Assembly: GCA_963701295.1 (NCBI GenBank)
Contig: OY969585.1
Span: 1,664,001-1,728,000 of the forward strand
From: Ignavibacteriota bacterium
GTDB taxonomy: Bacteria > Bacteroidota > Ignavibacteria > UBA10030
Direction: 5' to 3'
DNA: 64,000 nt
In this document: piece after piece, positions 1,435-21,259 of the stretch
Position numbering within the stretch: position 1 is the first letter of the stretch
Layout: every line of letters starts with the position of its first letter
The notes under the pieces: generated by a model
The model's database searches: none
Told to the model about the DNA's origin: nothing
The model's input: the letters and a program-made list of their open reading frames with translations, nothing else
Position numbers and translations under genes: made by a program

Positions 1435-1535
1435 TGAAATTATTTATTTGGTCAGAAATCCCGCTGTTCTTTAACGGGACTATTGATAAACAGATAATAA
1501 CGTAAAAAACAATTATTCAAATAAATAAAAAACAA

Positions 1536-1571
1536 AAATAAAGGCGGCAATCATTCTCGCCGCCTTTATTT
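1536..1571. terminator. Intrinsic terminator hairpin, possibly bidirectional
   Basis: aataaaggcggc-aatcattctc-gccgcctttatt with A/T tails on both sides. Confidence 0.75.
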
Positions 1572-1634
1572 ATATGGCTTAACGAAACAGAATGATGCAT
1601 TAGTTTCATTATAACTGTCACTCTAGGAATCTCA

Positions 1635-3662
1635 ATGAATAAATATTTCAAAGTTCACATTTCTTGTATATTGATATTTTGCTTGGTTTTTATAACTGAG
1701 TCTGTTGCTCAGACTTTTACTGGTCAAGAACTTTTAGCACGCCCAACGGATCATTCCATAACACTCAATGTTGTTTCAAGTTCTGCCCTTTATGCTTATG
1801 TAGAGTGTGGTGTATCATCAGGTATATATACCATCACAACATCAACAGTAAGCCAGGCTGCCAATGAACCGATTGTAATTGTAATAGATGGCTTAAGTGC
1901 TAATACAAAATATTATTACAGGTTAAGATATAGCACTAGCGGTTCAGGCACTTTTTTAGCAAGAGCCGAGCATACTTTCACTACGCAAAGACCAGCTGGG
2001 AGTACATTTACATTTGATGTTACTTCTGATTCACATGTTAACATAATGCTGGGCAGTGCTGCTACGTGGCAGCAAACTTTAACAAACGTTGCAAATGACA
2101 ATCCTGACTTTCTTCTTGACCTTGGCGATACATTCGCAATGGATAATGTAACCTCTGAAGTAACTGCCCGTACAAATTATCTTTTCCAGCGTACCTCTAC
2201 TACTCTGGGACTTGTGAGTCCTTCTGTTCCTATATTTATAGTTGTAGGAAACCATGAGAATCAAGAGGGCTGGCATCTTAATGATAACAGCAATCCCTTT
2301 CTCACAGAACCGGTGTGGGGTACAAATTCACAAAAAAGATACTTCCCCAATCCGGTTCCCAATGATTTTTATACTGGAGATACAGACACTTATTCTGGAC
2401 TTAACGGTGATCAGTTACATGAAGATTATTATGCCTGGACATGGGGCAATGCACTCTTTGTAGTTATAGATCCCTTTTGGTATACAACAGAAAAACCATT
2501 TATTGGGAATATCGGTGGAGGAGAACCAGGAACTGGGACCGGTGATAGATGGGATTGGACCGTAGGACAAACACAATATAACTGGTTAAAACAGACTCTC
2601 GAGAATAGTAAAGCCACCTACAAATTTCTCTTTATGCACCATATGACCGGAGGTGTAACCGTTGGAGCTAATGATGGAGATTATATACGGGGTGGAGCTT
2701 ACGCTGTACCGTATTGTGAGTGGGGAGGTTATAACGAGGACGGTACTACCTATGCTTTCAATACTAGACGTTCTGGGTGGTATGCTCCGATTGAACAGGT
2801 TCTCATGGAAAATGGTGTTACTGCTGTTTTCCATGGCCATGATCATCAGTATGCCTATGAGATACGTGACGGCATAGTCTATCAGTCACTCCCTGCAGCC
2901 GGTTTTTCCGGACCTGGATTTAGTATCTATAGTCAAACTAATCCGTTAACGTATAAAGTCTTAAACAGCCCGGGTCACCTTCGGGTTACGGTTACACCTT
3001 CACAAACAACAGTAGATTATATTAATTCCACTGCTGCTAATGGATCTAACGGATCGGTTGCTTACTCGTACACCATAAATGATCCTCTTCCTGTTGAGCT
3101 TACATCCTTTACGGCGGTTTTGCAGGGAACAAGTGCGTTGCTTAAATGGGCAACAGCAACAGAGACGAACAACTCGGGCTTCCAAATTGAGCGAAGTGTT
3201 GAGGGATCCAATGTTTGGGCAGAAGTTGCATTTGTCAACGGTGCAGGCACGAGCAGCTCACCGAAAACATATTCATATGAAGATAAGAACCTTGCTCCCG
3301 GTAAGTATGTCTATCGCATTAAACAGATAGATAATGATGGAAAGACAACAATCTACAATCCGAATGCATTACCGAAAGTGGATGCAGGAGTATCGAACAC
3401 ACTTCAACTGTGCGGCAATTATCCTAATCCGTTTAACCCGACAACGAACATGCAGTTCTCAGTACCTCAGGACGGATATGCATCGTTGAAGGTGTATAAC
3501 ATGTTAGGTCAGGAAGTAGCGACGTTGTTTGCAGGAATGGCAAAAGCTGGTCATTATATTCCAGCGACGTTTAATGCTTCACGATTGGCATCGGGCATAT
3601 ACTTTGCGCGCTTGCAGTATAGCGGCAAGAGCTTAATGCAAAGAATGCTGTTGATGAAGTAG
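1635..3662 (+). CDS. Secreted metallophosphoesterase (FN3/purple-acid-phosphatase-like N-domain plus calcineurin-like domain) with T9SS sorting domain
   Basis: Signal peptide; motifs SDSH, LGD, GNHE, MHH, GHDH; T9SS tail. Confidence 0.85.
   Translation: MNKYFKVHISCILIFCLVFITESVAQTFTGQELLARPTDHSITLNVVSSSALYAYVECGVSSGIYTITTSTVSQAANEPIVIVIDGLSANTKYYYRLRYSTSGSGTFLARAEHTFTTQRPAGSTFTFDVTSDSHVNIMLGSAATWQQTLTNVANDNPDFLLDLGDTFAMDNVTSEVTARTNYLFQRTSTTLGLVSPSVPIFIVVGNHENQEGWHLNDNSNPFLTEPVWGTNSQKRYFPNPVPNDFYTGDTDTYSGLNGDQLHEDYYAWTWGNALFVVIDPFWYTTEKPFIGNIGGGEPGTGTGDRWDWTVGQTQYNWLKQTLENSKATYKFLFMHHMTGGVTVGANDGDYIRGGAYAVPYCEWGGYNEDGTTYAFNTRRSGWYAPIEQVLMENGVTAVFHGHDHQYAYEIRDGIVYQSLPAAGFSGPGFSIYSQTNPLTYKVLNSPGHLRVTVTPSQTTVDYINSTAANGSNGSVAYSYTINDPLPVELTSFTAVLQGTSALLKWATATETNNSGFQIERSVEGSNVWAEVAFVNGAGTSSSPKTYSYEDKNLAPGKYVYRIKQIDNDGKTTIYNPNALPKVDAGVSNTLQLCGNYPNPFNPTTNMQFSVPQDGYASLKVYNMLGQEVATLFAGMAKAGHYIPATFNASRLASGIYFARLQYSGKSLMQRMLLMK
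3102..3661 (+). repeat. Copy 2 of the 560-bp T9SS C-terminal cassette
   Basis: Aligns to 874-1433 at a constant offset of 2228. Confidence 0.95.
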
Positions 3663-5715: not shown

Positions 5716-5784
5716 TTCCAAAAAGAATTAATCCCTTTTTCATCCTTTTGGGCGATTCCCGTTTATATAAATCATGAGTATTCT
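5716..5784 (+). promoter_or_regulatory. Conserved upstream box, copy 1, with -10 element TATTCT at 5779
   Basis: aaaagaattaatccctttttcatccttttgggcgatt; four copies in the window, each 23 nt before TAnnnT. Confidence 0.75.
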
Positions 5785-5896
5785 TGTCTACGGTTACAGA
5801 GAAAAGAGAGAGAATTATTCTATATCTCGAAGGTAGATGAAATAGTTGTACACATGTATGGAAATTGAATTGTTTGGAGTTTAAGGAGAATACATC

Positions 5897-6208
5897 ATGA
5901 ACTGGGATCGTCTGGAGGGACAGTGGAAGCAGCGAAGAGGGAAAGCTGTGTATCATTGGGGTAAAACGATGAACGACGAATTATCAGCGGTCTTGGGTAA
6001 GTATGAAGAGCTCGTTGGAAAACTTCAAGAGAAATACGGAATTGCCAAAGATGAAGCCAGACACCGTGTGGATGATTATAAAATTATCGTTGAACAGCTT
6101 AAGCAGGCCAATGGCAAATTAGTAAAGCTACATAAAGCATCGAACAATAAAAAGAAATCGGACAAACGGCAGATGAAATTAAAGGTATCGTCAAGGAAAA
6201 GAAAATGA
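5897..6208 (+). CDS. csbD: CsbD-family stress protein with basic C-terminal extension
   Basis: MNWDRLEGQWKQ.RGK....WGK...D.L....GK.E.LVGKLQEKYG; strong RBS AAGGAG. Confidence 0.85.
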   Translation: MNWDRLEGQWKQRRGKAVYHWGKTMNDELSAVLGKYEELVGKLQEKYGIAKDEARHRVDDYKIIVEQLKQANGKLVKLHKASNNKKKSDKRQMKLKVSSRKRK

Positions 6209-6277
6209 CTCATAGGGAACGGCTGTTCTATTCATCGATCACTATGCATCAAGCAGCAACACAAGGATAATGCATCT

Positions 6278-6397
6278 ATGAAAAAACAAAACATAGTTTC
6301 ATGGTTAGTAGACCGGAACTCATATCCTGGAGTTTTTTTGGTTCTCCTTTTCGTAGTCTTGTCAATTATGTTATTCTTCGACGGACTTTTTCGTTGA
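6278..6397 (+). CDS. Putative 39-aa single-pass membrane protein (below the track cutoff)
   Basis: MKKQNIVSWLVDRNSYPGVFLVLLFVVLSIMLFFDGLFR; AAGGA upstream. Confidence 0.45.
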   Translation: MKKQNIVSWLVDRNSYPGVFLVLLFVVLSIMLFFDGLFR

Positions 6398-6655
6398 CGA
6401 CGATTCCGGTAATTGTCGTCAATGCTTTAGGATAAATCTATCAGATCGCAAAGCGGGAAAACCGGAAGAAGAATTTAACGGCTTCAGATTTTGTATTACC
6501 GAGGCAGCAGAACGTATCCCCCGGAAAGGCTATCGTACACTATATTCTATCCAAGCTCAAGAGTTTGTGAAGATGCGGTAATTTAAGGGCTTGGGTTGTG
6601 TCAAGAGATAATGATAAATCAAGGAATGAATGGAATCGATAAAGAAAGACTTGTT

Positions 6656-8944
6656 ATGGAAAATGGTTCAATAATTAACCGAATTGCATTTATCGGCAAT
6701 TACTTGCCGCGCCATTGCGGCATTGCTACGTTTACAACAGATTTATGTGAAGCTGTCGCATCGGCGTATAGTGAAACAACATGTATTGCTTTACCGGTCA
6801 ATGATATCGAAGCCGGTTACCCTTATCCGGCCCGGGTTCGCTTTGAACTGATGGAGAAAGACATCCATTCGTACACGCGAGCAGCCGACTTTCTCAATAT
6901 CAATAATGTCGATATGGTCTGTCTGCAATTCGAGTATGGAATCTTCGGTGGAAAATCGGGCAGCCACATCCTCACACTCTTGCGTGATCTGCGAATGCCG
7001 ATTGTCACAACGCTGCACACCATACTTGACTTCCCAACCCCTGATCAGCGATTGGTGTTGGAAGAAGTTTCCGCTCTTTCTGATAGGTTGGTTGTCATGA
7101 GTGAACGCGGCTCTAAATATCTGCAAAAAATCTATCATGTATTGCCGGAAAAGATTGATCTGATTCCGCATGGGATTCCTGATGTGCCGTTCGTTGATCC
7201 AAGTTTCAATAAAGATCTATTTGGCGTGGAAGGTAAAATCGTTTTACTGAGTTTTGGTTTACTCTCAGAGAATAAAGGAATCGAGACCGTTATATCTGCC
7301 CTGCCCGACATTGTTGTGCGCTATCCCGACATTGTCTATATTGTTGTTGGTGCGACACATCCTCATGTTATTCAGCATGAAGGTGAAACGTACCGGCTCT
7401 CTCTTCAGTGGTTGGCCCAACAGAAGGGCGTAGAAAGTCATGTAATCTTTTACAACCGCTTTGTCAGTCTGGAAGAACTTATTGAGTTTATCGGAGCCGC
7501 TGATATCTATATTACACCCTATTTAAACGAGGCACAGATTGTATCCGGAACCCTTGCGTACACATTAGGAGCGGGTAAGGCGATCATCTCTACACCATAT
7601 TGGTACGCACAGGAGATGCTTGCCGATAAACGAGGTGTGTTTGTCCCCTTCCGTGATCCCGCAGTCTTGGCTGAGCAAGTGATAAACTTGTTGGGCAATG
7701 AAGCAGAGCGGCACGCAATGCGAAAGCGTGCGTATATGTTTGGACGATCGATGATTTGGTCCGAAGTGGCGAAACGCTACATGGAAAGCTTTGAACGCGC
7801 TCGAGCAGAACGCCGCCATTATATCCCGCCAGGGTTTATTGCAAAAGCACTCGATAAATATCCGAGTGAATTACCTCCGCTCAAAATAGATCACTTTCGA
7901 GCTATGACAGATGAAACAGGAATTTTGCAGCATGCTCTTTTTGCAGTGCCCAATTATTCTCATGGATATACAACTGATGACAATGCACGTGCCCTTTTGG
8001 TGAGCATTCTCTTATATGAACTAGGGAACAGCGAGAGTGTAGGATTAGCTTCCCGCTATCTCGCTTTCCTCGGATTTGCATTTAATACTCAGAATAAACG
8101 TTTTCGAAATATCATGGATTATCAGCGTAAGTGGTCAGAAGACATAGGTTCGGACGATAGCCACGGTCGAGCACTTTGGGCACTAGGAACCGTCTTGAGC
8201 CATTCTACGACACCGTCATTCAATAGTATGGCAGGCTGGTTATTCGAGCAAGCCCTTCCTTCCATCCTTGTAACGACCAGCCCGCGTGCCTGGGCATTTG
8301 CACTCATCGGCATTTCCGAGTATTCACAAAAATATTCTGGCGATCGGATGGCTCTTCAGGTCACCGAAGAATTGGCAGGCCGGCTTTTGAAATTGTATAA
8401 AAGTAATCGTTTGGAAGAATGGCGCTGGTTCGAGAGAAAACTTACGTATTGCAATGCGGCTCTGTCTCATGCTCTTCTCGTCTGCGGCAGATCCATTCCA
8501 AACAATGCAATGACCGATGCCGGTTTGGAATCGTTGCATTGGCTGGCTGGTCTACAGTGTGCAGGGGAGGGACATTTTGTTCCGATAGGTTCGAACGGGT
8601 TTTATCAGTATGGAAGCGAACGTGCTCGTTTCGATCAGCAGCCGATTGAAGCACAAGCAATGGTTTCGGCTTGTCTTGAAGCATACAGAATTACTGGAGA
8701 CAAACATTGGAACAAAGAAGCCCGGCGGTCATTCGAATGGTTCCTTGGACATAACGATTTAAAACTTCCGTTGTATGATGCAACCACCGGCGGCTGCCGT
8801 GACGGTTTACATCCAGACCGGCCGAATGAAAATCAAGGCGCAGAATCAACGCTCGCATTTCTTCAGTCCTTATTGGAATTGCGAATAGCCGAACAAACAC
8901 ATTTATCTATGGAGGCATTATTAAAACGAACAATCAGCACTTAG
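6656..8944 (+). CDS. GT4-family glycosyltransferase fused to a C-terminal (alpha/alpha)6-barrel-like domain
   Basis: IAFIGNYLPRHCGIATFT; FGLLSENKGIE; YITPY..E.QIVSGTLAY; C-domain YTTDDNARAL, FDQQPIEA, NQGAESTL. Confidence 0.85.
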   Translation: MENGSIINRIAFIGNYLPRHCGIATFTTDLCEAVASAYSETTCIALPVNDIEAGYPYPARVRFELMEKDIHSYTRAADFLNINNVDMVCLQFEYGIFGGKSGSHILTLLRDLRMPIVTTLHTILDFPTPDQRLVLEEVSALSDRLVVMSERGSKYLQKIYHVLPEKIDLIPHGIPDVPFVDPSFNKDLFGVEGKIVLLSFGLLSENKGIETVISALPDIVVRYPDIVYIVVGATHPHVIQHEGETYRLSLQWLAQQKGVESHVIFYNRFVSLEELIEFIGAADIYITPYLNEAQIVSGTLAYTLGAGKAIISTPYWYAQEMLADKRGVFVPFRDPAVLAEQVINLLGNEAERHAMRKRAYMFGRSMIWSEVAKRYMESFERARAERRHYIPPGFIAKALDKYPSELPPLKIDHFRAMTDETGILQHALFAVPNYSHGYTTDDNARALLVSILLYELGNSESVGLASRYLAFLGFAFNTQNKRFRNIMDYQRKWSEDIGSDDSHGRALWALGTVLSHSTTPSFNSMAGWLFEQALPSILVTTSPRAWAFALIGISEYSQKYSGDRMALQVTEELAGRLLKLYKSNRLEEWRWFERKLTYCNAALSHALLVCGRSIPNNAMTDAGLESLHWLAGLQCAGEGHFVPIGSNGFYQYGSERARFDQQPIEAQAMVSACLEAYRITGDKHWNKEARRSFEWFLGHNDLKLPLYDATTGGCRDGLHPDRPNENQGAESTLAFLQSLLELRIAEQTHLSMEALLKRTIST

Positions 8945-9870
8945 AACTTTTTCATCGTCATAACCTGAATCCTATTCTTACAGCTGCTCATTGGCCATAT
9001 CCCATTAATAGTGTGTTTAATCCAGGCGCGACTTTGTTGCCGGATGGAACTACCCTCCTTTTGTGCCGTGCGGAGGATCGGCGCGGGCATTCACATCTCT
9101 GTGCTGCTCGCTCTGCCAACGGCGTGGATAACTGGCAAATTGATTCTCATCCAACTTTCATGGCGGATCCCGATCACTTCCCTGAAGAACTCTGGGGTAT
9201 TGAAGACCCGCGAATTACATTTGTGCCGGAATTAAAAAAATATGCTATTGTCTATACCGCCTACACGCATGATGGTCCTGGTGTAGCCTTGGCGCTCACA
9301 GAAAACTTTGATACCTTCGAGCGATGCGGGTTAATCATGCAGCCAGAGGATAAAGATGCGGCTCTATTACCACGTCGCATTAACGGCCGTTGGGCTTTAA
9401 TCCATCGCCCGGTGAGTGCTCAGGGTGCTAACATGTGGATATCGTATTCGCCTGACCTTCGATATTGGGGCGGTCACAAGCTAATGCTTATAGCTCGGAA
9501 GGGCGGGTGGTGGGATGCAAATAAAATAGGACTTTCATCCCCGCCAATCGAAACACCGCAAGGCTGGCTAACGATTTACCATGGTGTGCGGCAGACAGCG
9601 TCCGGTTGCATTTACCGCTTAGGACTTGCGCTGTTTGATTTGGATACGCCTGAACACTGCCTTAAGCGCAGCACTGAGTGGATGTTCGGCCCGGAGCAAG
9701 CCTACGAGCGACGCGGTGACGTGGATGATGTTGTCTTTCCGTGTGGATACACTATCGCCCCTGACGGCGACACGATCCGGATGTATTATGGTGCGGCTGA
9801 TTCGAGCATTGCATTAGCCACGGGCAGTATCCACGCTATGTTAGAATGGCTTGAACAGCACAGCAAATAA
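8926..9870 (+). CDS. GH130-family glycosidase/phosphorylase; the expected start position reads ACG (8926), first canonical start is GTG 9013
   Basis: NPIL...WPY..NSVFNPGA; GIEDPRI; DKDAALLP; LIHRP; YHGV; VVFPCG; YYGAADS. Confidence 0.85.
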   Translation, partial: TNNQHLELFHRHNLNPILTAAHWPYPINSVFNPGATLLPDGTTLLLCRAEDRRGHSHLCAARSANGVDNWQIDSHPTFMADPDHFPEELWGIEDPRITFVPELKKYAIVYTAYTHDGPGVALALTENFDTFERCGLIMQPEDKDAALLPRRINGRWALIHRPVSAQGANMWISYSPDLRYWGGHKLMLIARKGGWWDANKIGLSSPPIETPQGWLTIYHGVRQTASGCIYRLGLALFDLDTPEHCLKRSTEWMFGPEQAYERRGDVDDVVFPCGYTIAPDGDTIRMYYGAADSSIALATGSIHAMLEWLEQHSK

Positions 9871-9891
9871 AACTTAAATAAGGAGAAAATC

Positions 9892-10026
9892 ATGAGTAAA
9901 GGTCAAAACAGTAAAGATGGTTCAAAGAAAAAACCAGCAAAAACCATGAAAGAAAAAAAGGCGGCTAAAAGAGAGAAGAAAAGTGGAAAGATTAACCAAG
10001 GAATGGTTATTCAACCACATATGTGA
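9892..10026 (+). CDS. Small Lys-rich protein, 44 aa (below the track cutoff)
   Basis: MSKGQNSKDGSKKKPAKTMKEKKAAKREKK...; perfect AAGGAG RBS; resembles a widespread small basic peptide family. Confidence 0.65.
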   Translation: MSKGQNSKDGSKKKPAKTMKEKKAAKREKKSGKINQGMVIQPHM

Positions 10027-10412
10027 GATTTTAAATGAAGGAAATAAAACCCGCCGCCCTCAGAATAGTATCGATCTCAGGGATCGGCTAGACCGGGTTA
10101 ATATTCTGGTTTTGCCGGAATTAAGTTTTCTGAGGAGATATGTTGAAATTTCCACATTGGATATATCCCGTCAAGACGCATGTAGTATGAAGTACTATTC
10201 AGATTTATCTGTATGGTATGCCTCTGGATCTTCGGATCGATAATAGTAGGTGCAGGTATTCTGATATGATTTTCATGAAAAAACTATTTGTAAAGAAAGA
10301 ATAATTACCTCTCCCGTTGTTCTTTTCTCGTCAAGTATTCTTTATGTCATGGGTAATTCTGGTCGGTTTCATGAGGTAGATTAATAGTGGTTGAACTAGA
10401 AAGGTGAATTCG

Positions 10413-10793
10413 ATGAAAAAAAATGTGGGTTTGTGGATTGACCATAAGAAGGCTGTGATTTTTAGTTTGGCAGATGAAGGAGCTGAAATAAAACGAATAT
10501 CGTCAGAATTAAAAAATGATGTCCTGCTCCCCGGAGGGGCGCAAAAGGAATCTGTAGAGGAACATGGGGACAAGCGTTTAACCGGCCATCTGAACAATTA
10601 CTATGATGAAATACTCTCTTATATGCGTGATGCGGAATCTATTTTGATATTTGGCCCCGGTGAGGCAAAGGTCGAACTTAAAAAACGTCTTGAGAATATG
10701 GAACTAAATGGACACATTGTTGGTATTGAAACAGCAGACACGATGACAGATAACCAGATTGTGGCAAAAGTACGCCAACGCTTTCTGAAATAG
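10413..10793 (+). CDS. Hypothetical protein, eRF1-domain-2/host-attachment-like family
   Basis: GLWIDH.KAVI; ILIFGPGEAK; ETAD.MTDNQIVAKVR. Confidence 0.65.
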   Translation: MKKNVGLWIDHKKAVIFSLADEGAEIKRISSELKNDVLLPGGAQKESVEEHGDKRLTGHLNNYYDEILSYMRDAESILIFGPGEAKVELKKRLENMELNGHIVGIETADTMTDNQIVAKVRQRFLK

Positions 10794-10935
10794 AATCTGC
10801 TTTCCCGGGACACTCTCTCCATAGGAATGGTCATCACAGAATATATTGTCACGTTGGAAACAACAAAAACATTTCCTTACAAGAGGTTAAAATCATGAAA
10901 AAACTAAATGATGGAATTTCTATATCGGTGCTCGC

Positions 10936-12411
10936 ATGACAAATACAGAGGACAAACGACACCGTTCCATCCTGCAACGAATTGCACATCGGGCGATGAT
11001 AGAAAGAGGACTTCTTCCAGATTTTTCTTCTCAGGCGATTGCCGAGCTTAACGGAATTCAAGGGGCTTCCACAACTGTTGAAAAATCGACGCGTGATCTT
11101 AGGAATCTTGCATGGTGCTCTATAGATAATGATGATTCGCGCGATTTGGATCAGCTTACTGTTGCCGAAAACATGCCGGAGGGAGCAGCAAAGATTCTTG
11201 TCGCCATCGCCGATGTTGAAGTTGTCGTCAAGAAGCAATCAGCGCTTGACGATCATGCAGAGCACAACACCACCTCGGTCTATACCGCTGCGCAGATATT
11301 CCCAATGCTGCCCGAGAAGCTCTCGACCGATCTCACATCTCTCAACTTTGAATCAGACCGCCTTGCCATCGTCATTGAAATGGTTATTGCCGGCGACGGC
11401 TCGCTTCAAAGTTCGGATATTTATCGAGCGGTGGTTTGCAATCGTGCAAAGCTTGCCTACAACAGTGTTGCTGCTTGGTTGGAAGAAACTGGGCCAATGC
11501 CGCAGGCAATCGGTTTAGTCAATGGCCTTGACGAAAATCTCCGACTCCAGGACCGCACAGCCCGAAAGCTGAAATCACTCCGGCACGAGCACGGTGCGCT
11601 TGATCTCGAAACAATAGAAGCCCGCCCTATATTTGAGGGAGATGAGATCAAGGACTTAGCAATTGAAAAAAAGAACAGTGCCAAAGGTATCATAGAGGAC
11701 TTTATGATTACGGCAAACGGTGTGACGGCACGATACCTTGCAGACAAAAAGTTTCCATCGCTACGGCGTGTTGTCCGGACACCAAAACGCTGGGATCGAA
11801 TCGTCGAGATTGCCTTAGAACACAATTTCACACTTCCTCAAGAGCCCAATTCAAAAGCCCTGGATGAATTCTTGCTTTCTGCAAAAACTGCGGATCCACT
11901 TCGCTTTCCCGATCTTTCTCTTAGTGTCATCAAGCTCTTAGGCGCCGGTGAATATGTCGTCGAACTTCCAGGCAGAGATTCTGCTGGACACTTCGGCCTT
12001 GCAGTCAAAGATTATTCTCACTCCACTGCACCGAACCGCCGATATCCCGATTTGATCACGCAGCGGTTAGTGAAAGCTGCGATGGCGAAGGATCCCATGC
12101 CGTATACGACTGATACATTGGCAGAACTCGCAAAGCACTGCACTGAAAATGAGGACGCGGCGAAAAAGGTTGAACGGCAGGTTGGAAAATCTGCAGCAGC
12201 TATGGTATTGGAGTCAAAAATAAATCAACAGTTCGATGCTTTTGTGACAGGCGCATCTGCTAAAGGAACGTGGGTCCGTCTTCTACATCCGCCTATTGAA
12301 GGAAGACTGGTGAGCGGCTTTGAAGGCTTGGATGTTGGCCACAGAATCCGAGTACAGTTACTGCACACTGATGTAGAGCGGGGATATATTGATTTTAAGA
12401 AAGTGGAATAA
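10936..12411 (+). CDS. RNB-domain exoribonuclease (RNase II/R-like, short form)
   Basis: SIDNDDSRDLDQ; AIADV; HFGLA..DYSHSTAPNRRYPDL; C-terminal S1-like domain. Confidence 0.9.
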   Translation: MTNTEDKRHRSILQRIAHRAMIERGLLPDFSSQAIAELNGIQGASTTVEKSTRDLRNLAWCSIDNDDSRDLDQLTVAENMPEGAAKILVAIADVEVVVKKQSALDDHAEHNTTSVYTAAQIFPMLPEKLSTDLTSLNFESDRLAIVIEMVIAGDGSLQSSDIYRAVVCNRAKLAYNSVAAWLEETGPMPQAIGLVNGLDENLRLQDRTARKLKSLRHEHGALDLETIEARPIFEGDEIKDLAIEKKNSAKGIIEDFMITANGVTARYLADKKFPSLRRVVRTPKRWDRIVEIALEHNFTLPQEPNSKALDEFLLSAKTADPLRFPDLSLSVIKLLGAGEYVVELPGRDSAGHFGLAVKDYSHSTAPNRRYPDLITQRLVKAAMAKDPMPYTTDTLAELAKHCTENEDAAKKVERQVGKSAAAMVLESKINQQFDAFVTGASAKGTWVRLLHPPIEGRLVSGFEGLDVGHRIRVQLLHTDVERGYIDFKKVE

Positions 12412-12510
12412 TTTATAGAGAATGATTTCGTCGTGTTTGCCAGGCGATGATAACCCAATTGTTGTTTGGACCAAAGGGGACGAATATGATGTTCATCAAG
12501 GAGATGTAAA

Positions 12511-13602
12511 ATGAAAAACGTTGGGTTATTGAGCCCTTACAAACTAGGTAACATTGATCTGAAAAATCGAATCGTTATGGCACCAATGACGCGCTCTCGT
12601 GCACCGGGTAATGTGCCAAACGAATTAATGGCCGAATTCTATGGACAGCGTGCTACCGCAGGACTCATTATTACCGAAGGGACGTCTCCTTCGCCGAATG
12701 GTCTCGGTTACAGCCGTATCCCCGGAATCTTTAGCGGAATACAAGTGGAAGGTTGGAAGAAAATTACACATGCCGTACATTCCAAAGGTGGAAAAATATT
12801 TGTTCAGCTCATGCATACCGGGCGCATCTGCCATCATGCAAATATGCCAAAAGACGCAGTAATTATTGCGCCCTCTGCCGTGAAGCCAGCCGGACAAGTG
12901 TGGACAGACGCTCTGGGATTGCAGGATTTTCCTATCCCCAAAGAAATGGTTATTGAAGAAATAAAACATACGATACAAGAATACATTACCGCTGCGGCGA
13001 ATGCGATAAAAGCCGAATTTGACGGCATAGAACTCCATGGTGCCAATGGATACCTCTTAGAGCAATTCTTGTCTCCTGTGAGTAATAAAAGAAATGATGA
13101 CTACGGAGGCAGTATAGAAAACCGTTGCCGTTTCCTTTTGGAAGTAGTGCGAGGCGCGGTCAAAACAATTGGAAAGGAGAGAGTCGGTATACGTTTATCT
13201 CCTTACGGTGTAGCAAGCGATATGCCTTATTATCCTGAAATTGATAGCACATATAAGTATCTTTCTGAGCAGCTCAATCACATGGAGATCCTGTATATCC
13301 ATATTGTAGACCACAGCAGCATGGGAGCACCAGCAGTGCCTATCGAGATTAAAAAAGCTATCCGCGAAAGATTTCAAGGTGTAATTATTCTGAGCGGTGG
13401 ATATACAAAAGAACGCGCTGAAAACGAAGTACAAGGCGGACTTGCAGAACTTATCGCATTCGGCAAACCATTTATTAATAATCCTGATCTCGTTGAACGA
13501 TTCATTAACGGCTGGCCGATTTCAAAGGAGCTTGATATGAAAACATTCTATTCTCCAGGTGAAAAAGGATATACAGACTATCCTTTATATGCTGTTAGTT
13601 GA
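12511..13602 (+). CDS. Alkene reductase, old yellow enzyme (NemA-like)
   Basis: NRIVMAPMTRSRA; ELHGANGYLLEQFL; NKR.D.YGGSIENR.RF; GYTDYP. Confidence 0.9.
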   Translation: MKNVGLLSPYKLGNIDLKNRIVMAPMTRSRAPGNVPNELMAEFYGQRATAGLIITEGTSPSPNGLGYSRIPGIFSGIQVEGWKKITHAVHSKGGKIFVQLMHTGRICHHANMPKDAVIIAPSAVKPAGQVWTDALGLQDFPIPKEMVIEEIKHTIQEYITAAANAIKAEFDGIELHGANGYLLEQFLSPVSNKRNDDYGGSIENRCRFLLEVVRGAVKTIGKERVGIRLSPYGVASDMPYYPEIDSTYKYLSEQLNHMEILYIHIVDHSSMGAPAVPIEIKKAIRERFQGVIILSGGYTKERAENEVQGGLAELIAFGKPFINNPDLVERFINGWPISKELDMKTFYSPGEKGYTDYPLYAVS

Positions 13603-13624
13603 CGAACAGTAAAAGAATTATATT

Positions 13625-14122
13625 ATGAAAATACACTTGCCCGAGAACGAACAGAACCTTCTGCCGCCGGCTGATTGGGCGGCAGAAATTCAGAGATTGC
13701 AAGAAAAGCTAATAAATGAACGCGACCGAAACCTCCGCACACTTGCAGACTTTAAGAATTATCGCCGCCGCATTGAACGTGATGGCAATACGATTGCCAA
13801 GGAAAGTGAGCGGGGAATGTTGCTTCCTCTGCTAGATATCGTCGACGACATGGAAAAAGCGCTTCAGAGTGCAAATGATGTGAAGCAACCCTTTGTGCAA
13901 GGTGTGCAAATCATCTATCAAAAACTTCTTGCCCTGTTGGAGACATATGGAGTTCTCCCTTTCGAAAGTGTTGGTACGCCATTCAATCATAATTTGCATG
14001 AAGCTGTGGCGATGGCGAAATATGAAGGTAGTGAACCGGGAACCGTTGTTAATGAATTGCGTCGCGGCTATCTCTGGAATAATGAACTACTGCGCGTTGC
14101 GCAAGTACGAGTTGCCGGATGA
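13625..14122 (+). CDS. grpE: Nucleotide exchange factor GrpE
   Basis: RTLADFKNYRRR; LL.IVDDMEKAL; G.PF..NLHEAV; GY......LR.AQV.V. Confidence 0.9.
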   Translation: MKIHLPENEQNLLPPADWAAEIQRLQEKLINERDRNLRTLADFKNYRRRIERDGNTIAKESERGMLLPLLDIVDDMEKALQSANDVKQPFVQGVQIIYQKLLALLETYGVLPFESVGTPFNHNLHEAVAMAKYEGSEPGTVVNELRRGYLWNNELLRVAQVRVAG

Positions 14123-14173
14123 TAAAGATCATGTGTGATAGCGCCCCGGAAATAAGTATAAAAAGGTAAAACT

Positions 14174-15100
14174 ATGAACTACAAAGATTACTACAAGGTA
14201 TTGGGCGTCGGAAAAACAGCCACAACGGAAGAAATCAAAAAGGCATATCGAAAGCTTGCCAACAAATATCACCCTGACAAAACCAAAGGAGACAAAACAG
14301 CCGAAGAGAAGTTTAAGGATATCAATGAAGCCAATGGAATTCTCAGCGATCCGGTGAAGCGAAAAAAATACGATCAGTTTGGCGCAGATTGGAAGCAGTA
14401 CGAGGCAGCCGGAGCGCAACCGGGCGGATTCGATTGGTCGAAGTATACAAGCGGCCGTGGCGGACAAAAACACACCATGAGTCAAGAAGAGTTCAGCGCG
14501 ATGTTTAATGAGGATGGCGGCGGTGATATTTTTGAAACTCTTTTCGGACAGCATTCCAGAGAAAGGCATGGGAAAAGGAACAGGGCGATCAAAGGAGAGG
14601 ATTCGGAAGCTGAGACGACACTCTCGCTTGAAGAAGCCTATCATGGTTCGACCCGGTTTCTTAAGGTCAATGGTCAAACAATCAAGATCATTTTGAAGCC
14701 AGGGATCATGGATCAGCAAGTATTAAGATTGGAAGGCAAGGGAGGCCATGGGTTGAACGGCGGCGCAAACGGCGATCTTTACATCACCATCAAAGTCGTA
14801 TCACATCCGGAATTTCAGCGGAGAGGAAATGATCTTTACTGCGATAGGCCGGTCGACTTGTATACTGCCGTGCTCGGCGGTAAGGCGCGGATCAAAACCT
14901 TGAAGGATACGGTCAATGTAGATATTCCCAAAGAAACGCCCAACGGCAAGATGCTGAGACTCATGGGTCTCGGGATGCCGGTGTATGGCACAAAAAACGA
15001 ATTTGGGAACCTCTATGTCACTATTGTCATTCAACTACCCGATCATCTCAGTGAGCAAGAAATCGAATTGTTCAGGAAACTATCTTCACTACGGAAATAA
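14174..15100 (+). CDS. cbpA: DnaJ-class chaperone without zinc finger (CbpA-like)
   Basis: J-domain with HPD, G/F-rich linker, DnaJ_C; no CxxCxGxG repeats. Confidence 0.8.
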
Positions 15101-15431
15101 ACTCCGTTCGCATTCAGATCAGTCTCATTCTACTGTCAAGCGATATTCAATCTTGCACCTCATGGAAGTTCTCTGTCTGTCAGGACGCACGCTAAATAAA
15201 CTGCGGGTAAAAAAATCTTAACAGCATATGAAAATGACTGCGTTACAGGCCTGGGCATATCTTGTATTTTATTTTTAAAATCATTAATTTTCTAACAACA
15301 ACGAGTGTAATCTGAGCAGATAAGTAAAGGGAGATCGCGCCGATTTTCTGAAATCAAGAGAGAGATCAGAATACTGCAACACCTGAGCTCGGAGGTTTCG
15401 ATGCGTCATAGAAATAAAGTGATACTATCCT

Positions 15432-16081
15432 ATGAAAAAAATTAGAATACTCATCATAGACGATAATCGCGTTTTGCGCGAGGGTATCACGACGATGCTC
15501 AATGAGCAGGCAGATATGCACGTCACGGCTACCATAGGAAGCGGCAATAATATTCTGCTGAAAGCAAGCCAAGCAAAACCTCATGTTATTCTTATGGACA
15601 TGGGTATGAAGGATTTCAAAGATGTGTCCATTGTAGAATCGATACGGAAAAAAATGCCGGAAGTGAAAGTGATCGGAATGGGGTTTGTCCCGACACAATC
15701 AGACATCGTTGAGTTTGTTGAAGCAGGAGCATCGGGTTTCATTCTGAAAATCGCGACAGTAAAGGAATTTATCGGCACCATTCGATCTGTGGCAAAGGGA
15801 ATAAAAGTTCTCCCCCCTCTCTGGCCGGTTCACTTTTTACTCATGTGATTGAGCTTGCTCTTAAAAAGAGGAAGGGAAGAACAACCAATGTTGTGCGGAT
15901 GACGAAACGCGAACGTGAAATAATCGTACTGATTGCTGATGGCCTGAGCAACAAAGAAATTGCCCAGCAGCTGAACATCGCTACCCATACGGTGAAAAGC
16001 CATCTGCATAACATCATGGAAAAATTAGCCCTGCACAGCCGCCTGCAAATAGCAAAGTATACCCGCGAAGAGAACTACTAA
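15432..16081 (+). pseudogene. NarL/LuxR-family response regulator split by a 1-nt frameshift in a C6 run (15812-15817); may be a sequencing error
   Basis: REC domain (IIDDN, LMDMGM, GASGFILK) in one frame; LuxR HTH (MTKREREI...GLSNKEIA..LNIA.HTVKSH..NIMEKL) in another; one extra C joins them. Confidence 0.85.
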
Positions 16082-16255
16082 TTTTTGTTGTACAATATGA
16101 CAATGCTACTAAGAAACTTTATTTATCCGCATCCTTAAAAAGAAAATTCCCAAAACAACACACGATCTCTCCTCTTTATTTACTCGTGTTACGCATGAAC
16201 TGAAAACAACCATCGGCGTGCTCAATTCCAAAAAAGCTTCGATCTCTCTATATAT

Positions 16256-16468
16256 GAAACTGCCTAAAAAAGTACCCCATCATTGCGATCCCGCTGCTTT
16301 ATAGCGGGAGAAGCAATCTGCAACCATCTGTTTTGCTTAGTAAACCTTGTTTTGTCCGTCTCAACATTGATGAGTTGAGATCTCGTTCCGACAAAGTCGG
16401 AACGGATGGATTGCTTCATTCGCTTCGCTCACTCACAATGACTGTCTCTTTGCTTTTTAGACAGCCTC
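16256..16468. mobile_element. Non-autonomous palindromic element (MITE/REP-like), degenerate copy
   Basis: Imperfect terminal IRs (gaaactgcctaaaaa / tttttagacagcctc); internal tcattgcga...gaagcaatc...gattgcttc...caatga arms; cgttccgacaaagtcggaacg hairpin; related to 21102-21259. Confidence 0.65.
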
Positions 16469-16656
16469 AAAAAGGGCAGGTGAATAGAGCGATTTCTCAC
16501 TGTGATCTGCAAAGTTGGGCTTTCTGCGTAACATCAGTTATTTAGTATTTTTCCCTTTATGAGAATGCTTTTCATCCCCAACACCGGGCGTTTCTTTTTG
16601 CCCTTCTGATCAAACCAGTTCGTTTGTTTTTCATGAGCCTGTTTATATTTAGGCTC

Positions 16657-16725
16657 TTCTAAAAAGAATTAATCCCTTTTTCATCCTTTCGGACTATTTC
16701 TGCTAAACAAAAACATTGCTACAAT
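16657..16725 (+). promoter_or_regulatory. Conserved upstream box, copy 2, with extended -10 TGcTACAAT (TACAAT at 16720)
   Basis: aaaaagaattaatccctttttcatcctttcggactatt; 23-nt spacing to the -10. Confidence 0.75.
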
Positions 16726-16835
16726 TTTACGCCTCACTCTATAAGAGTGATTATCTCTTTTCGAAAAGGGAGATGGGGTTTGTGGAAAATAATTACGTAA
16801 TCATTGTACCGGATTTTTAAAAAAAAGGGTAAGCT

Positions 16836-17393
16836 ATGATGAATCAAAGAATATTTGAAAAGACAGCTCTTCCGCATATGACCATTCTCCATGCTTATGC
16901 ATTGCATCTGACTATGAATTCCGAACATGCGAAGGATCTCTTGCAAGAAACGTATCTCAAAGCATATAGATTCTGGGGCAATTTTGAAAAAGGAACAAAT
17001 ATCAAAGCGTGGTTATATTGTATTATGAAGAATTCATACATAAACTTCTATAGAAAAGAAATAAAAGAGCCGAAGAAGGTGGAATATCAAGAATATCACT
17101 TGCCTTATAGCACGACACAAGAGGCATCTTTCGACAAAAAACATCTTCCGGAAAAGACTTACGATGAAATATTTGGTGACGAAATTGCCCGATCCATCGA
17201 ATCGCTAAAAGATTCTTTCAAGAACATCATCCTTCTCAGCGATGTTGAGGGGCTCACGTATAAAGAAATTGCAAAAGTGATTGATTGCCCGGTAGGTACT
17301 GTACGTTCTCGCTTATATAGAGGAAGAAGCCAATTAAGGAAAAAACTCTTCAAGTATGCTAAGAAGAACGGATATATCCTCCAGGAGTCTTGA
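16836..17393 (+). CDS. ECF-type sigma-70 factor (SigH/SigR-like); no adjacent anti-sigma gene
   Basis: DLLQETYLKAYR; GTN.KAWLY.IMKN; region 4 TYKEIAKVIDCPVGTVRSRLYRGR. Confidence 0.9.
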   Translation: MMNQRIFEKTALPHMTILHAYALHLTMNSEHAKDLLQETYLKAYRFWGNFEKGTNIKAWLYCIMKNSYINFYRKEIKEPKKVEYQEYHLPYSTTQEASFDKKHLPEKTYDEIFGDEIARSIESLKDSFKNIILLSDVEGLTYKEIAKVIDCPVGTVRSRLYRGRSQLRKKLFKYAKKNGYILQES

Positions 17394-17445
17394 ATGTACA
17401 GTTTCCATGAAAGCACACATTCAGTTAAAAAACCGGCGGCATTCC

Positions 17446-17514
17446 TTCCAAAAAGAATTAATCCTCTTTTCATCCTTTCGGACTATTCCTTCTCAATGCA
17501 ATCATTGGTATACT
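17446..17514 (+). promoter_or_regulatory. Conserved upstream box, copy 3, with extended -10 TGgTATACT (TATACT at 17509)
   Basis: ttccaaaaagaattaatcctcttttcatcctttcggactatt; 23-nt spacing to the -10. Confidence 0.75.
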
Positions 17515-17565
17515 TCTTCACGATAGTTCAGGGGATGAGCACTTGAAAGAAAAGGAACTTGCATA

Positions 17566-17877
17566 ATGAACTGGGATAGAATTGAAGGACAGTGGAAGCA
17601 GCGAAGAGGAAAATCGGCGCACCATTGGGGAAAATTAATGAACGACGAGCTTGCTGCCGTCGCGGGGAAACACGAACAGCTTGTGGGAATGCTCCAAGAG
17701 AAATACGGTGTTGTCAAAGAGGAAGCCAAGCGGCAAGTTGATGAGTTCAAAAAAGTTATCGAGCAATTGAAAAAGTCCAATGCCAACCTCATGAGATCAC
17801 AAAAATCATCGAGAAAAAGAAGGAAGAAGTCGAACGGAAAATCGGTAAAAGTAAAAACATCGTCGAGGAAACCGTAA
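17566..17877 (+). CDS. csbD: CsbD-family protein with basic C-terminal extension (paralog of 5897-6208)
   Basis: MNWDRIEGQWKQRRGKSAHHWGKLMNDEL...LQEKYG; same 103-aa length as the first copy. Confidence 0.85.
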   Translation: MNWDRIEGQWKQRRGKSAHHWGKLMNDELAAVAGKHEQLVGMLQEKYGVVKEEAKRQVDEFKKVIEQLKKSNANLMRSQKSSRKRRKKSNGKSVKVKTSSRKP

Positions 17878-17985
17878 ACCATTAAGGGAAATTAGTGAGC
17901 GACGAGTTTGCTAACAATGTGGGAAGCACGAACAGCTTTTGGGAATTCTTCAAAAGAAATACGGTATTATAAAAAAAGGAAAGCC
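17878..17985 (+). pseudogene. Degenerate internal fragment of a third csbD copy
   Basis: accattaagggaaattagtgagcgacgagtttgct...cacgaacagcttttgggaattcttcaaaagaaatacggt aligns to 17621-17727. Confidence 0.7.
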
Positions 17986-17989
17986 TTTT

Positions 17990-18205
17990 AATGATCTCTG
18001 TGGATATGGAATTACGCACTCAATCAAATCTCTGCCAAATAATTTAAGGACTGTCGTATTACTCAGTGATTAAGGTTTGCTGAAATTGCAAAAATACTTG
18101 CTTGTCCAGTAGGTACCGTGCGCTCACAGTTGTACAGGGGTCGAAAATTACTCTAACAAAAGCTGGTAAATTATTCTATAATTGATGGTTATATTTTAAG
18201 GAAGT
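17990..18205 (+). pseudogene. Relic of an ECF sigma factor region 4
   Basis: Translates EIAKILACPVGTVRSQLYRGRKLL*QKLVNYSIIDGYIL, colinear with the C-terminus of 16836-17393; contains stops and indels. Confidence 0.75.
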
Positions 18206-18353
18206 TCGAAAATTCGGAGGATCTGCAAAAAGACAATTTCAAGTAAGGATTGTATACGTTTGCTCTTTGCCGCAGTCTCTGTGTTATATCGGATCAAAAA
18301 CGAATCCACGATCCGGTGTTTTTATCTCCAATTTTATCGGTAATTCCCCGCAC

Positions 18354-18418
18354 TAAAGGGATTAATCCCTTTTTCATCCTTTTGGGCTATTCCCAATAAA
18401 ATATTTCATCATTACAAT
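18354..18418 (+). promoter_or_regulatory. Conserved upstream box, copy 4, with -10 TACAAT at 18413
   Basis: aaagggattaatccctttttcatccttttgggctatt; 23-nt spacing to the -10. Confidence 0.7.
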
Positions 18419-18653
18419 TATACACTTGAGCAGAGGAGTCTTCCACCCTCGAAGGATGGAAGAGAAAGGGCTTATGAAGCAGAGTGAGGCAAAGAGAGAA
18501 TGCTTTCCCGCCAAAGAAATAGAAAATATTCTGAAATCTAAGATAATCACAAAACAAGATTCTATAATAAAAGGAAGAAAGATATAACATAGTTGATTGT
18601 TGTGATATGTTTTCCGTGTCATGAATAAAATCACCACCTGGAGGGTCTTCAAT

Positions 18654-21066
18654 ATGAAAAACGACAGGAAAATAGAGCACGAATTGATTGCAGAGTTAGA
18701 ATCTGCCTATCAAAAAGTATATGAAATGGAAGCGCTGCTGAAGGAACATGGGCACAAAGAAGGAGGTGAAACGGAACGCCCCCAGACTATGAGTGATGTG
18801 CGAGATTCCGAAATCCGCTACCGGCGGCTCTTCGAAGCTGCTAAGGACGGTATTCTGATTCTCGACGCCGACTCAGGCGCAATCACCGATGCGAATCCTT
18901 TCATCAGGGAAATTCTCGGATATTCACCACAGGACTTGATAGGAAAACGATTGTGGGAAATCGGTGCATTCTTTGATGTCGTAGCCAGTAAAGCTGCGTT
19001 TGAAGAATTACAGCGGAAGGAATATATACGCTACGAGAATCTGCCGTTACAGACCAAAGATGGACAGTTGCGTGAAGTGGAATTCATCAGCAATGTCTAT
19101 GAAGTCGACTTAAAAAAAGTTATCCAATGCAATATTCGTAATATAACCAAGCGCAGAGAAGCAGAAAAGGCTCTAAAGGAATCTGAGATTCGTTACCGGC
19201 GCCTGTTTGAATCGGCGAAGGATGGCATTCTGATTCTCGATGCAGAAACCGGCAAGATTATCGACGCCAACCCATATCTCCTGAAAATTCTGGACTATTC
19301 TCATGAAGAAGTGGTAGGAAAGGAATTGAGGGAAATTGGGCCCTTCGAGAATATTATTGCAAACCAGGATATTTTTCGAAAGTTGCAGGATCATGAATAT
19401 GTTCACTATGAGCATTTCCTTCTTCAAAACAAAGAAGGTGTAACTATTCATGTGGAGTTCGTGAGTAACTTTTACTATGTGAACGAGCGTAAAGTTATCC
19501 AATGTAATATTCGTGATATCACAGAGCGCCTGAATGCAGAGAAAGCATTGAATGAGAGTGAGGAGCGCTATCGGTGCCTAGTGGAGTTTTCTCCAGATGC
19601 CATTATGGTGCACAGCTATAATAAGATTGTATACGTCAATCCTGTTGCCATCAGACTCCTCGGAGCACACTATGCATCGGAACTACTGGGTAAGCCAGTT
19701 TTCGATATCGTTCACCCGGATTATAAAGAATCTGTGCGTCGTCGGGTTACGACAGGAATAATTGGTCATAAGACTTTGCCATTGATGGAGGAAAAATTTC
19801 TCCGGTTGGATGGATCTACTATTGATGTCGAAGTAGCTGCTCTACCAATTGAGTACGATGGGATGCCCGCCATGCCGGATATTGTACGTGACATCACGGA
19901 AAAAAAGAAACTTCAACAGGAACTGCTCCAATCGCAGAAAATGCAGAGTATCGGCACAGTTGCAGGCGGTATTGCCCACGACTTCAATAATATCCTCGGT
20001 ATTATCCTTGGATACACATTGTTGATTGAGAAGAGTAAATTTAATGCTCAGAAGCTGTCCGAAGGCATTACGGCTATTAATCTTGCAGTCAAACGAGGTG
20101 CGGCGCTTTGTCCGTCAGATTTTAACGTTTGCGCGGAAAACGGACATTTCGTTCGAACCGTTAGATCTTGCAGATTTACTCCAAGAGCTTTTTTCCATGC
20201 TCGAACAAACTTTCCCCGAGATTATCACCTTCAAGAAAATCTTTCCAACGAACATTCCATTCATTCTCGCTGATCGTACACAGATTCATCAAGCGCTGTT
20301 AAACCTTTGCGTCAATGCTCGAGATGCCATGCCCGATGGTGGATCTATTATCATCCAGGTAGAGAAGCAAACTGGAAAACAATTGAAAGAACAATTCCCA
20401 GCTGCCGATCAAAATTTGTATGTCTGCATCAGTGTGACTGATACAGGAGAAGGCATGAATGAAGCAACACGTTGTAGAGTATTTGACCCATTTTTTACAA
20501 CAAAGCCAAAAGGAAAAGGAACAGGCCTCGGTTTGTCTGTTGTCTATGGTATTGCACAAGCACATCAAGGTTTCATCAACGTGGAGAGTGAATTGGGACA
20601 TGGAACTACCTTCCGACTGTACTTCCCGATTCCGAACATAAGCAAGACACCAGACGATTCTCCACAAGCAGAACCTTTTGAGATTGGCGGTACAGAAACA
20701 ATTCTACTTGTGGAAGATGAAGAACTTCTCCTCGAGATGATGCGTGTCTTGCTTGAATCCAAAGGGTACAAAGTATTTGTTGCACACGATGGCGCGGAGG
20801 CGATCGAAATGTACAAAAAACACATGCAGGAAATCGCCCTTGTGCTTACTGATATGGGTCTCCCTATGATGACAGGAATCGAAGAGTATGAAAAACTCAA
20901 AGAGATAGATCCGGGTGTCAAGGTAATTTTGGTCAGCGGATTTTTTGAACCGGAGGAGAAATTTGAACTCCTGAAAGCCGGAGCGAAGGGCTTTCTCCAA
21001 AAACCATATATGTCGGATGAAGTTCTTCGGGCACTCCGCGAAGTACTGGACAAAAAAAGTATATAA
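18654..21066 (+). pseudogene. PAS x3 - HisKA - HATPase - REC hybrid histidine kinase, split by one extra T near 20108 (probable sequencing error)
   Basis: Tandem SEIRYRRLFE.AKDGILILDA PAS repeats; AHDFNN H-box; [30 protein letters not shown]; C-terminal REC. Confidence 0.85.
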
Positions 21067-21101: not shown

Positions 21102-21259
21102 GAGGCTGTTCAGAACGTCGAGAAAAAGTCATTGCGAGAGGATCCCGAACGACAAAGTCGTTCGGGAGACGAAGCAATCTGCAATCCTAAGCGGAAAAAA
21201 AAGTGAGATTGCTTCGCTTTGCTCGCAATGACACGAACAAGAACTTTATGAACAGCCTC
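21102..21259. mobile_element. Non-autonomous palindromic element (MITE/REP-like) with terminal inverted repeats
   Basis: gaggctgttcagaa / ttatgaacagcctc (13/14 IR); gtcattgcgag...cgaagcaatct...agattgcttcg...ctcgcaatgac arms; cccgaacgacaaagtcgttcggg hairpin. Confidence 0.75.

Follow-up and report, generated by a model that had tools for sequence, protein, structure and literature searches.

A conserved 37-bp promoter box in Ignavibacteria as the likely operator of an orphan NarL/LuxR-type regulator

A 64,000-nucleotide stretch from the single-contig, 3.64-Mb genome of an Ignavibacteriota bacterium (OY969585.1, positions 1,664,001 to 1,728,000; hereafter the window, whose coordinates are used unless stated otherwise) carries four copies of a 37-bp box, each lying ahead of a gene on the same strand and at a fixed distance from a predicted -10 hexamer. 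We propose that this box is likely the operator of activator-dependent sigma70 promoters, predicted to be bound and switched on by the product of a neighbouring gene, at 15432, encoding a regulator of a distinct NarL/LuxR subfamily. That the box is a promoter element appears to us nearly certain; its layout makes activation rather than repression highly probable, and the distribution of the two partners gives good reason to believe that the box is read by this regulator family, binding itself being predicted from sequence.

The box and its promoter form

The four copies align with one another without gaps (Table 1), in agreement with a preliminary description made from the sequence alone, although the coordinates given there fall 5 nt too early for the first three copies and 1 nt too early for the fourth. 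As also described there, the hexamers TATTCT, TACAAT, TATACT and TACAAT start exactly 23 nt past the 3' half-site of the box, and Pfam assigns the genes behind boxes 1 to 4 to CsbD, an extracytoplasmic function (ECF) sigma factor, CsbD and a PAS hybrid kinase, respectively. A matrix built from the four copies returned seven sites above 10 bits in the host genome, whereas the controls, obtained by reversing and complementing that genome, gave one above 10 bits and none above 12, and a refined matrix returned the identical seven sites and none in the controls, indicating that the box is rare and specific and not a genome-wide repeat. Two further strong boxes lie beyond the window, one at C1:1631145 preceding a radical-SAM gene (677 aa) that also follows a box in many relatives, and one at C1:1901429 preceding a long open reading frame (ORF) resembling a secreted protein; a weak box is found at C1:1629222. 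The preliminary description had considered that an occurrence throughout the genome without positional bias would speak for the end of a mobile element; the genome scan gives instead six to seven copies, each ahead of a same-strand gene.

Scanning of relatives revealed that the box recurs widely. Of 41 related genomes, 22 contained matches to a 21-letter pattern (one of which, G025, later failed the box matrix and was excluded), with nothing in the reversed control, and a longer pattern matched 38 of the 251 genomes of the class, also with no control matches. Admitting only sites above 25 bits, we collected 226 distinct sites, of which 221 lie outside long ORFs and five inside ORFs of at least 150 aa; 213 have a same-strand ORF start no more than 450 nt away. 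The letters of the box barely vary across phyla, and the six boxes of the host genome score as high on the matrix as those of its relatives. Box and regulator occur together in a single genome belonging to a different class of the phylum, and side by side in records titled Fibrobacterota, Latescibacteria and Delongbacteria, so that the earlier attribution of the circuit to this lineage proved too narrow. A single spacer family takes in 104 of the 226 sites, so many of the copies are related by descent. No description of the box or of its regulon was found in the literature outside subscription journals, curated regulon databases and supplements. The yjbJ motif (PMC11109978) is a Streptococcus RNA with no relation to the box.

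The position of the -10 hexamer relative to the box is conserved as well. TAnnnT starts at column 58 in 84 of the 103 sites that were left of 106 after removal of duplicates and of sites below 30 bits, a set made up mostly of members of the genus and hence not of independent sites. When one site was kept per spacer family (n=73), TAnnnT was found at column 58 in 51 sites and within 1 nt of it in 61; spacer information in this set does not exceed 0.36 bits per column, and TT is kept at columns 35-36, where the -35 element would begin given a 17-nt spacer. The earlier remark that the intervening sequence differs between copies holds only in part, as the spacer keeps an ATCAT-like stretch in the 103-site, genus-dominated set. 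The host genome itself uses ordinary sigma70-type housekeeping promoters: across 1,191 upstream regions we counted 396 cases of TTG-N3-N17-TAnnnT, as against 118-173 at other spacings, and the Bacteroidetes-type TAnnTTTG is not enriched (166 vs 180). The form TT[ACT]-N17-TAnnnT gives no genome-wide peak, and the six strong box promoters carry TT followed by C or T at -35, which suggests that they are weak when unaided. The earlier proposal of an activator-type geometry abutting a weak -35 is supported.

Assuming that the -10 element spans -12 to -7, columns 19-34 of the box form an imperfect 7-2-7 dyad, TCATCCT-TT-(C/T)GGNCTA, which extends from -51 to -36, is centred at -43.5 and has a near-invariant central TT (68 of 73 sites at each position). 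An upstream half-site at columns 8-13 points in the same direction 11 bp earlier, and a fourth half-site at columns 4-9 overlaps it in the opposite orientation, the pair being centred at -61.5; the two direct half-sites and one inverted half-site counted in the preliminary description were thus correctly seen, and the count was incomplete. NarL of Escherichia coli is described as activating yeaR via a 7-2-7 site at -43.5, with alpha-CTD, the polymerase alpha subunit's C-terminal domain, in the minor groove at its centre (PMC10853779). The likeness to that promoter comprises the NarL/LuxR fold, the location of the dyad upstream of -35 and its A/T-rich centre, the alpha-CTD site in the NarL structure, and the differences lie in the half-site sequence and in the two extra overlapping half-sites near -61.5 (PMC10853779, as far as its accessible text goes). 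The mechanism class, NarL-type activation at -43.5, is already known.

The regulator and its link to the box

The regulator belongs to the NarL/FixJ (LuxR-HTH) family, PF00072 and PF00196 matching the two halves of its split gene (Table 1). An intact ortholog aligns over its full length to VraR and NarL, and the top Protein Data Bank matches are VraR, NarL, DesR and DosR, at the 35% level. Seven LuxR-type HTH genes score above cut-off in the host genome, and only the 15432 gene falls in the box-linked subfamily, which a quick tree of 141 regulators sets apart from the remaining NarL proteins by a long branch with full support (123 vs 18 rows). Among 7,999 scored candidates 7,830 passed an E value of 1e-40, and the best 120 span 195-241 aa. 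Two orthologs scored at best 130 and 141 bits against the NCBIfam models for NarL, NarP, MctR, MadR, UvrY, UhpA, CsgD and RcsB, far below the cut-offs, and no characterised member of the subfamily was found.

The preliminary description had placed this regulator at the head of the circuit, and both co-occurrence and physical linkage support it as the likely reader of the box. With the strict box pattern, the subfamily is present in 32 of the 38 box-positive genomes of the class as against 29 of the 213 others. With a box profile at a cut-off of E <=0.001, 150 class genomes, whose membership was inferred from family tallies, divide into 33 with both partners, three with the box only, three with the regulator only and 111 with neither, and eight families (f1, f8, f12, f17, f21, f22, f23 and f28) each include members with both and members with neither. 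One of the box-only genomes (G138) has its regulator truncated by a contig end, and two of the regulator-only genomes (G156, G164) have weak boxes of 16-20 bits beside the regulator. Of 120 subfamily genes, 79 are followed by a same-strand box no more than 1 kb downstream, as compared with 1 of 17 other NarL genes, and at 79 loci chosen by regulator presence the next most frequent neighbour family occurs 19 times. Boxes near regulators were aligned from 82 of 83 sites, one low-scoring partial copy being omitted. The recognition helix is near-invariant in the 123 sequences (Thr187, Glu197 and Lys198 in all of them), matching a box that hardly changes from one phylum to another.

In other families of the class two regulator paralogs stand in tandem with the box between them; a heterodimer is not obligatory, because the complete host genome has a single paralog. 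The ATG of seven box-led regulator paralogs lies 5 nt past the hexamer, at the expected start site, which fits leaderless mRNAs and lends the predicted start indirect support. At L187, L194, L200, L202, L204 (5901-7632 region), L131 and L135, second paralogs of tandem pairs often begin in this way, and the box was seen to overlap the regulator stop codon in three Fibrobacterota-like or other records and in G492.

The receiver domain of the subfamily retains the acidic E/D pair (118 and 117 of 123 sequences), the Asp (116/123) and the Lys (121/123). The Thr/Ser at the end of beta4, found in 18/18 other NarL proteins, is replaced in 121/123 (Asp in 61 and Gly in 60, with Ser in two), and the Pro four residues past the Asp, again present in 18/18 other NarL proteins, is outside the six commonest residues of the subfamily. 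A receiver without any one of five residues counts as a pseudo-receiver, and those characterised are described as mostly orphans (PMC12632262, accessible text). By that definition, and judged from its residues, the receiver of the subfamily is a pseudo-receiver, and it differs from the atypical orphans treated there in keeping the Asp and Lys in nearly all sequences, so that it is not aspartate-less. No consistent partner kinase travels with the regulator: of 79 neighbourhoods, three contain a HisKA_3-type H-box, and in all three a second NarL gene, of canonical type, stands next to it. The regulator thus departs from E. coli NarL in its receiver without Thr/Ser, in having no linked sensor kinase and in its score (130 bits vs a cut-off of 250), as well as in its targets, which are stress and envelope genes here and nitrate respiration genes in the case of NarL.

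Target genes, proposed mechanism and alternatives

CsbD-like proteins form the largest class among the 213 box-led ORFs (35), next to which stand ECF sigma factors (12, all in close relatives), paralogs of the regulator (10 under a strict rule, 12 when clustered), two radical-SAM clusters of 9, KaiC (9), ice-binding proteins (8), PAS kinases (4), CsbD-sigma4 chimeras (4), LysE (3) and DUF4398 (3). Single or paired targets include YtxH, DUF3185, DUF5670, BrkB, rubrerythrin, a flavin oxidoreductase, SPFH, a thiamine pyrophosphate (TPP) enzyme, glycosyltransferases and outer-membrane proteins. Known SigB or RpoS targets include YtxH, DUF883 and pyruvate oxidase. CsbD is under the control of stress sigma factors in several species (PMC10294668), and KaiC-like proteins aid stress resistance in Pseudomonas (bioRxiv 10.1101/2022.01.26.477890), both according to the accessible parts of these sources. 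The identity of the targets, which is the only basis for it, makes a general-stress role moderately probable; as many targets have no known family, the wider label of a general stress and envelope regulon is one that we infer. A small box-led family of 74-114 aa with a FIGWQ motif accounts for 10 of the 213 targets (for example L197:498-743, L178, L196, L173 and L046:8054-8395); it has no Pfam match and is sometimes fused to DUF932.

The cascade from the regulator to the ECF sigma factor put forward in the preliminary description stands in so far as a box precedes the island ECF gene, but it is confined to close relatives. A close (>=64%) island ECF gene occurs in 3 of 251 class genomes, as against 207 for its core paralog, suggesting that the island ECF is a local add-on and not the core of the circuit; nothing was identified downstream of it. 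Over 181 bp, the module that follows the regulator gene shows 82% identity to the module leading CsbD in G001. As the same module leads the ECF gene here, the promoter stays in place while the target gene is swapped. Feedback on the kinase, also suggested earlier, is not borne out, since PAS kinases make up only four of the 213 box-led ORFs, the kinase of the window has a HisKA-like H-box and a C-terminal receiver and not a HisKA_3 domain, and the regulator is without the Thr/Ser of phospho-signalling.

In the mechanism that we propose, a regulator dimer would occupy the 7-2-7-like dyad centred at -43.5, further subunits would bind the two overlapping half-sites around -61.5 to form a cooperative array, and the regulator would thereby recruit the housekeeping RNA polymerase to a promoter whose -35 element keeps little beyond TT. 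Given a receiver devoid of the Thr/Ser and unaccompanied by a partner kinase, the activity of the regulator is probably set by the amount of the protein, a partner or a ligand, and not by ordinary phosphorylation. The box would in many genomes also drive a second regulator paralog, giving rise to a cascade, the island ECF sigma factor and the PAS kinase would be local recruits to the regulon, and the regulon genes would probably serve general stress. A more far-reaching version, which we put forward tentatively and hold to be doubtful as a whole, is that Ignavibacteria and several uncultured soil phyla govern general stress without a stress sigma factor, through a phosphorylation-independent array of three or four pseudo-receiver subunits spanning the class I (-61.5) and NarL (-43.5) positions, which would be a homo-oligomer in the genus and a paralog pair elsewhere, with the CsbD-sigma4 chimera as a decoy for the ECF branch.

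Among known systems, the general stress regulons of SigB, RpoS and EcfG resemble the present one in having CsbD as a leading target (PMC10294668, accessible part). They are defined by an alternative sigma factor, whereas the promoters described here have the sigma70 form and an upstream operator, which implies that any master switch would be a transcription factor and not an alternative sigma. DosR/DevR of Mycobacterium tuberculosis has sensor kinases and hypoxia targets without counterpart here, and its box is not known to be related in sequence. It is nevertheless comparable in that one NarL-family activator serves a broad survival regulon together with the housekeeping polymerase, and it differs in being activated by phosphorylation (PMC13486717, in the text accessible). 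The present system varies the known mechanism class in its long operator with four half-sites, in its orphan pseudo-receiver and in placing CsbD-type genes under housekeeping promoters. For a large group of mostly uncultured bacteria in which gene regulation has received little attention, the analysis defines a precise operator, names a candidate master regulator and lists its targets. Should stress induction hold true, these bacteria would run a general stress response on a transcription factor and the housekeeping polymerase, and not on SigB, RpoS or EcfG. A large family of Thr-less pseudo-receivers with a candidate target site would also offer a handle on the switching of such proteins, which is called a mystery in the accessible text of PMC12632262.

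A number of observations weigh against this proposal. Seven genomes carry the box and no detected regulator (G002, G009 with 6-8 sites, G013, G030, G186, G248 and G275), and G085 has a regulator without an above-threshold box nearby. Thirty of the 120 subfamily genes have no above-threshold box in the tested range, among them three Chlorobiaceae-titled loci and all genes from Gemmatimonadales and Vicinamibacterales; next to the regulators of these three groups we saw no clear variant of the box, only weak look-alikes of at most 6 bits. The box matrix and profile were trained in part on near-regulator sites, and related genomes are not independent of each other. The overlap between the two upstream half-sites fits no single NarL dimer. 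Of the 213 box-led ORFs, as many as 143 belong to none of the five main classes, a good part of these being envelope or secreted proteins without a known family, and the term stress may be too narrow for the regulon. Within the window, two lesions, the frameshifts of regulator and kinase, in about 3,945 island codons somewhat exceed a background of 5 in 64,258 (P ~0.04), and the chimera gene beside the frameshifted genes has clearly decayed.

The seven genomes with a box and no detected regulator also speak for a reading in which the box is a promoter element recognised by another factor, be it the island ECF, its paralog found across the class or some further protein, while the NarL-type gene shares the island of the box, with which it could have been co-inherited; the ECF gene is itself box-led in 12 cases. 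Against such a factor, the distributions of the island and core ECF genes do not match that of a box found in 38 of 251 genomes, and no neighbour family comes near the constancy of the regulator at loci chosen for its presence. ECF-type -35 elements begin with GGAAC, whereas TAnnnT with TT at a 17-nt spacer is the housekeeping form; we consider this alternative improbable. The same regulator might bind the box and yet repress, by blocking the -35 region that the 3' half-site touches as it ends at -36. Against repression speak promoters that look weak on their own and a dyad at the position from which NarL is reported to activate (PMC10853779), and we regard it as distinctly unlikely. An origin of the box as a mobile-element end, or as a cassette duplicated neutrally and without regulatory role, could be argued from the clustering of copies in islands, from the spacer family shared by nearly half of the sites and from the upstream module found before ECF here and before CsbD in relatives. 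The few genomic copies all stand ahead of same-strand genes, box and -10 are kept although the sequence between them is randomised, in 73 unrelated spacers and in several phyla, and no transposase or integrase was recognised among the 60 most frequent neighbour clusters, of which a part was covered by Pfam; this explanation is very improbable. Still less credence is due to the idea that the box acts as RNA, forming a hairpin or terminator where the upstream gene ends, even though a palindrome with a T run behind it can be read in its 5' half and the box is often found right behind the regulator stop codon. Complementarity between paired columns equals the expectation from column composition in 16 of 17 pairs, only columns 7/10 exceeding it (46 vs 35.6), an Rfam scan of window positions 1-30000 gave no match, and a fixed distance to a downstream -10 is unexpected for a terminator.

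A different kind of alternative, compatible with the operator proposal, is that the regulon is real in relatives and dead in this strain, the regulator, kinase and chimera genes being pseudogenes and the boxes recent orphans. Three broken genes within 6 kb, the intact regulator frame in related genomes and in two related contigs at 15810, and orphan boxes elsewhere (G002) are in keeping with such decay. The lesions of regulator and kinase are, on the other hand, single-base indels at base runs, and the assembly carries frameshifts in 5 out of 158 orthologs that are conserved, hisF, miaB and rsmB among them, which points to indel errors of assembly; at this background rate the chance is 1.7% for one gene of the regulator's size and about 4% for two in the island. 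The two DNA sequencing runs compared contain relatives only, mostly less than 90% alike. With the six host boxes scoring as well as those of relatives, we consider a dead regulon possible but doubtful; the regulator frameshift may be an assembly error or a real lesion, and it is fairly likely that the regulator is intact in the living strain.

Feature coordinates, the CsbD-sigma4 chimera and neighbouring observations

Table 1. Features of the box-containing region, in window coordinates
Feature	Position	Strand	Remarks
Box 1	5721..5757	+	37 bp; 7-2-7-like dyad 5740-5755; TT of -35 at 5756
Predicted -10 hexamer TATTCT, promoter 1	5779..5784	+	Spacing conserved in relatives
csbD-1, CsbD-like small protein	5897..6208	+	PF05532
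NarL/LuxR-type regulator, pseudo-receiver (from its residues)	15432..16081	+	Split by 1-nt deletion in C/T run at ~15810-15817; sole subfamily member found in genome
Partial degenerate box copy	16569..16600	+	~100 nt upstream of Box 2; common to relatives
Box 2	16662..16698	+	Dyad 16681-16696; first box downstream of regulator gene; most conserved box position
Predicted -10 hexamer TACAAT, promoter 2	16720..16725	+	
Island ECF sigma factor	16836..17393	+	Best model SigH_actino-like, below cut-off; paralog of class-wide ECF at C1:781287
Box 3	17451..17487	+	Dyad 17470-17485
Predicted -10 hexamer TATACT, promoter 3	17509..17514	+	
csbD-2, CsbD-like small protein	17566..17877	+	77% DNA identity to csbD-1 over 167 bp
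Decayed CsbD-sigma4 chimera gene	17880..18246	+	Start codon not found; carries a 10-nt deletion and an internal stop; relatives have it intact behind a box
Box 4	18355..18391	+	Dyad 18374-18389
Predicted -10 hexamer TACAAT, promoter 4	18413..18418	+	
PAS hybrid histidine kinase	18621..21066	+	3 PAS, HATPase_c, REC; split by 1-nt insertion in T run at ~20107

The intact chimera is a protein of 144 aa in which a CsbD N-terminus is joined to region 4 of the island ECF sigma factor. It is full length in G003, G004, G011 and G010 and shorter in G001 and G008, and intact loci are found at L037:9398-9829, L151:7706-8137 and L027:11276-11707; G010 has the chimera without the island ECF gene. With dN/dS values of 0.24-0.45 in three pairs, as compared with 0.13-0.19 for the ECF gene, the chimera is under purifying selection. 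Its sigma4 half is the conserved part, the recognition-helix Arg of GTVRSRL being mostly replaced by Cys. The chimera makes up about 40 sequence clusters, and 40 of 46 homolog matches have no sigma region 2 domain. One may guess that it serves as a decoy for an anti-sigma factor or for the polymerase. Two attempts at structure prediction gave no usable model (mean pLDDT 44).

A short palindromic REP-like repeat lies at 16400-16445, between the regulator gene and Box 2, and again at about 21150-21230, with 10 genomic copies by a strict pattern. More apparently split genes occur at 33125-33637 and 37980-40303, including an outer-membrane-receptor-like gene in three pieces, which fits indel errors. 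A glycoside-hydrolase-130 gene lacks its start relative to orthologs (8944-9013; 285 vs 316 aa), and its frame extends back into the end of a glycosyltransferase gene without a clear start codon. The segment 46396-60563 holds a cluster resembling glutamate synthase subunits together with heterodisulfide-reductase-like (HdrABC/MvhD) and methylenetetrahydrofolate-reductase-like genes, as judged from their translations. Finally, two adjacent secreted proteins encoded at 136-3662 share a nearly identical C-terminal sorting module of 190 aa, suggestive of a recent duplication.

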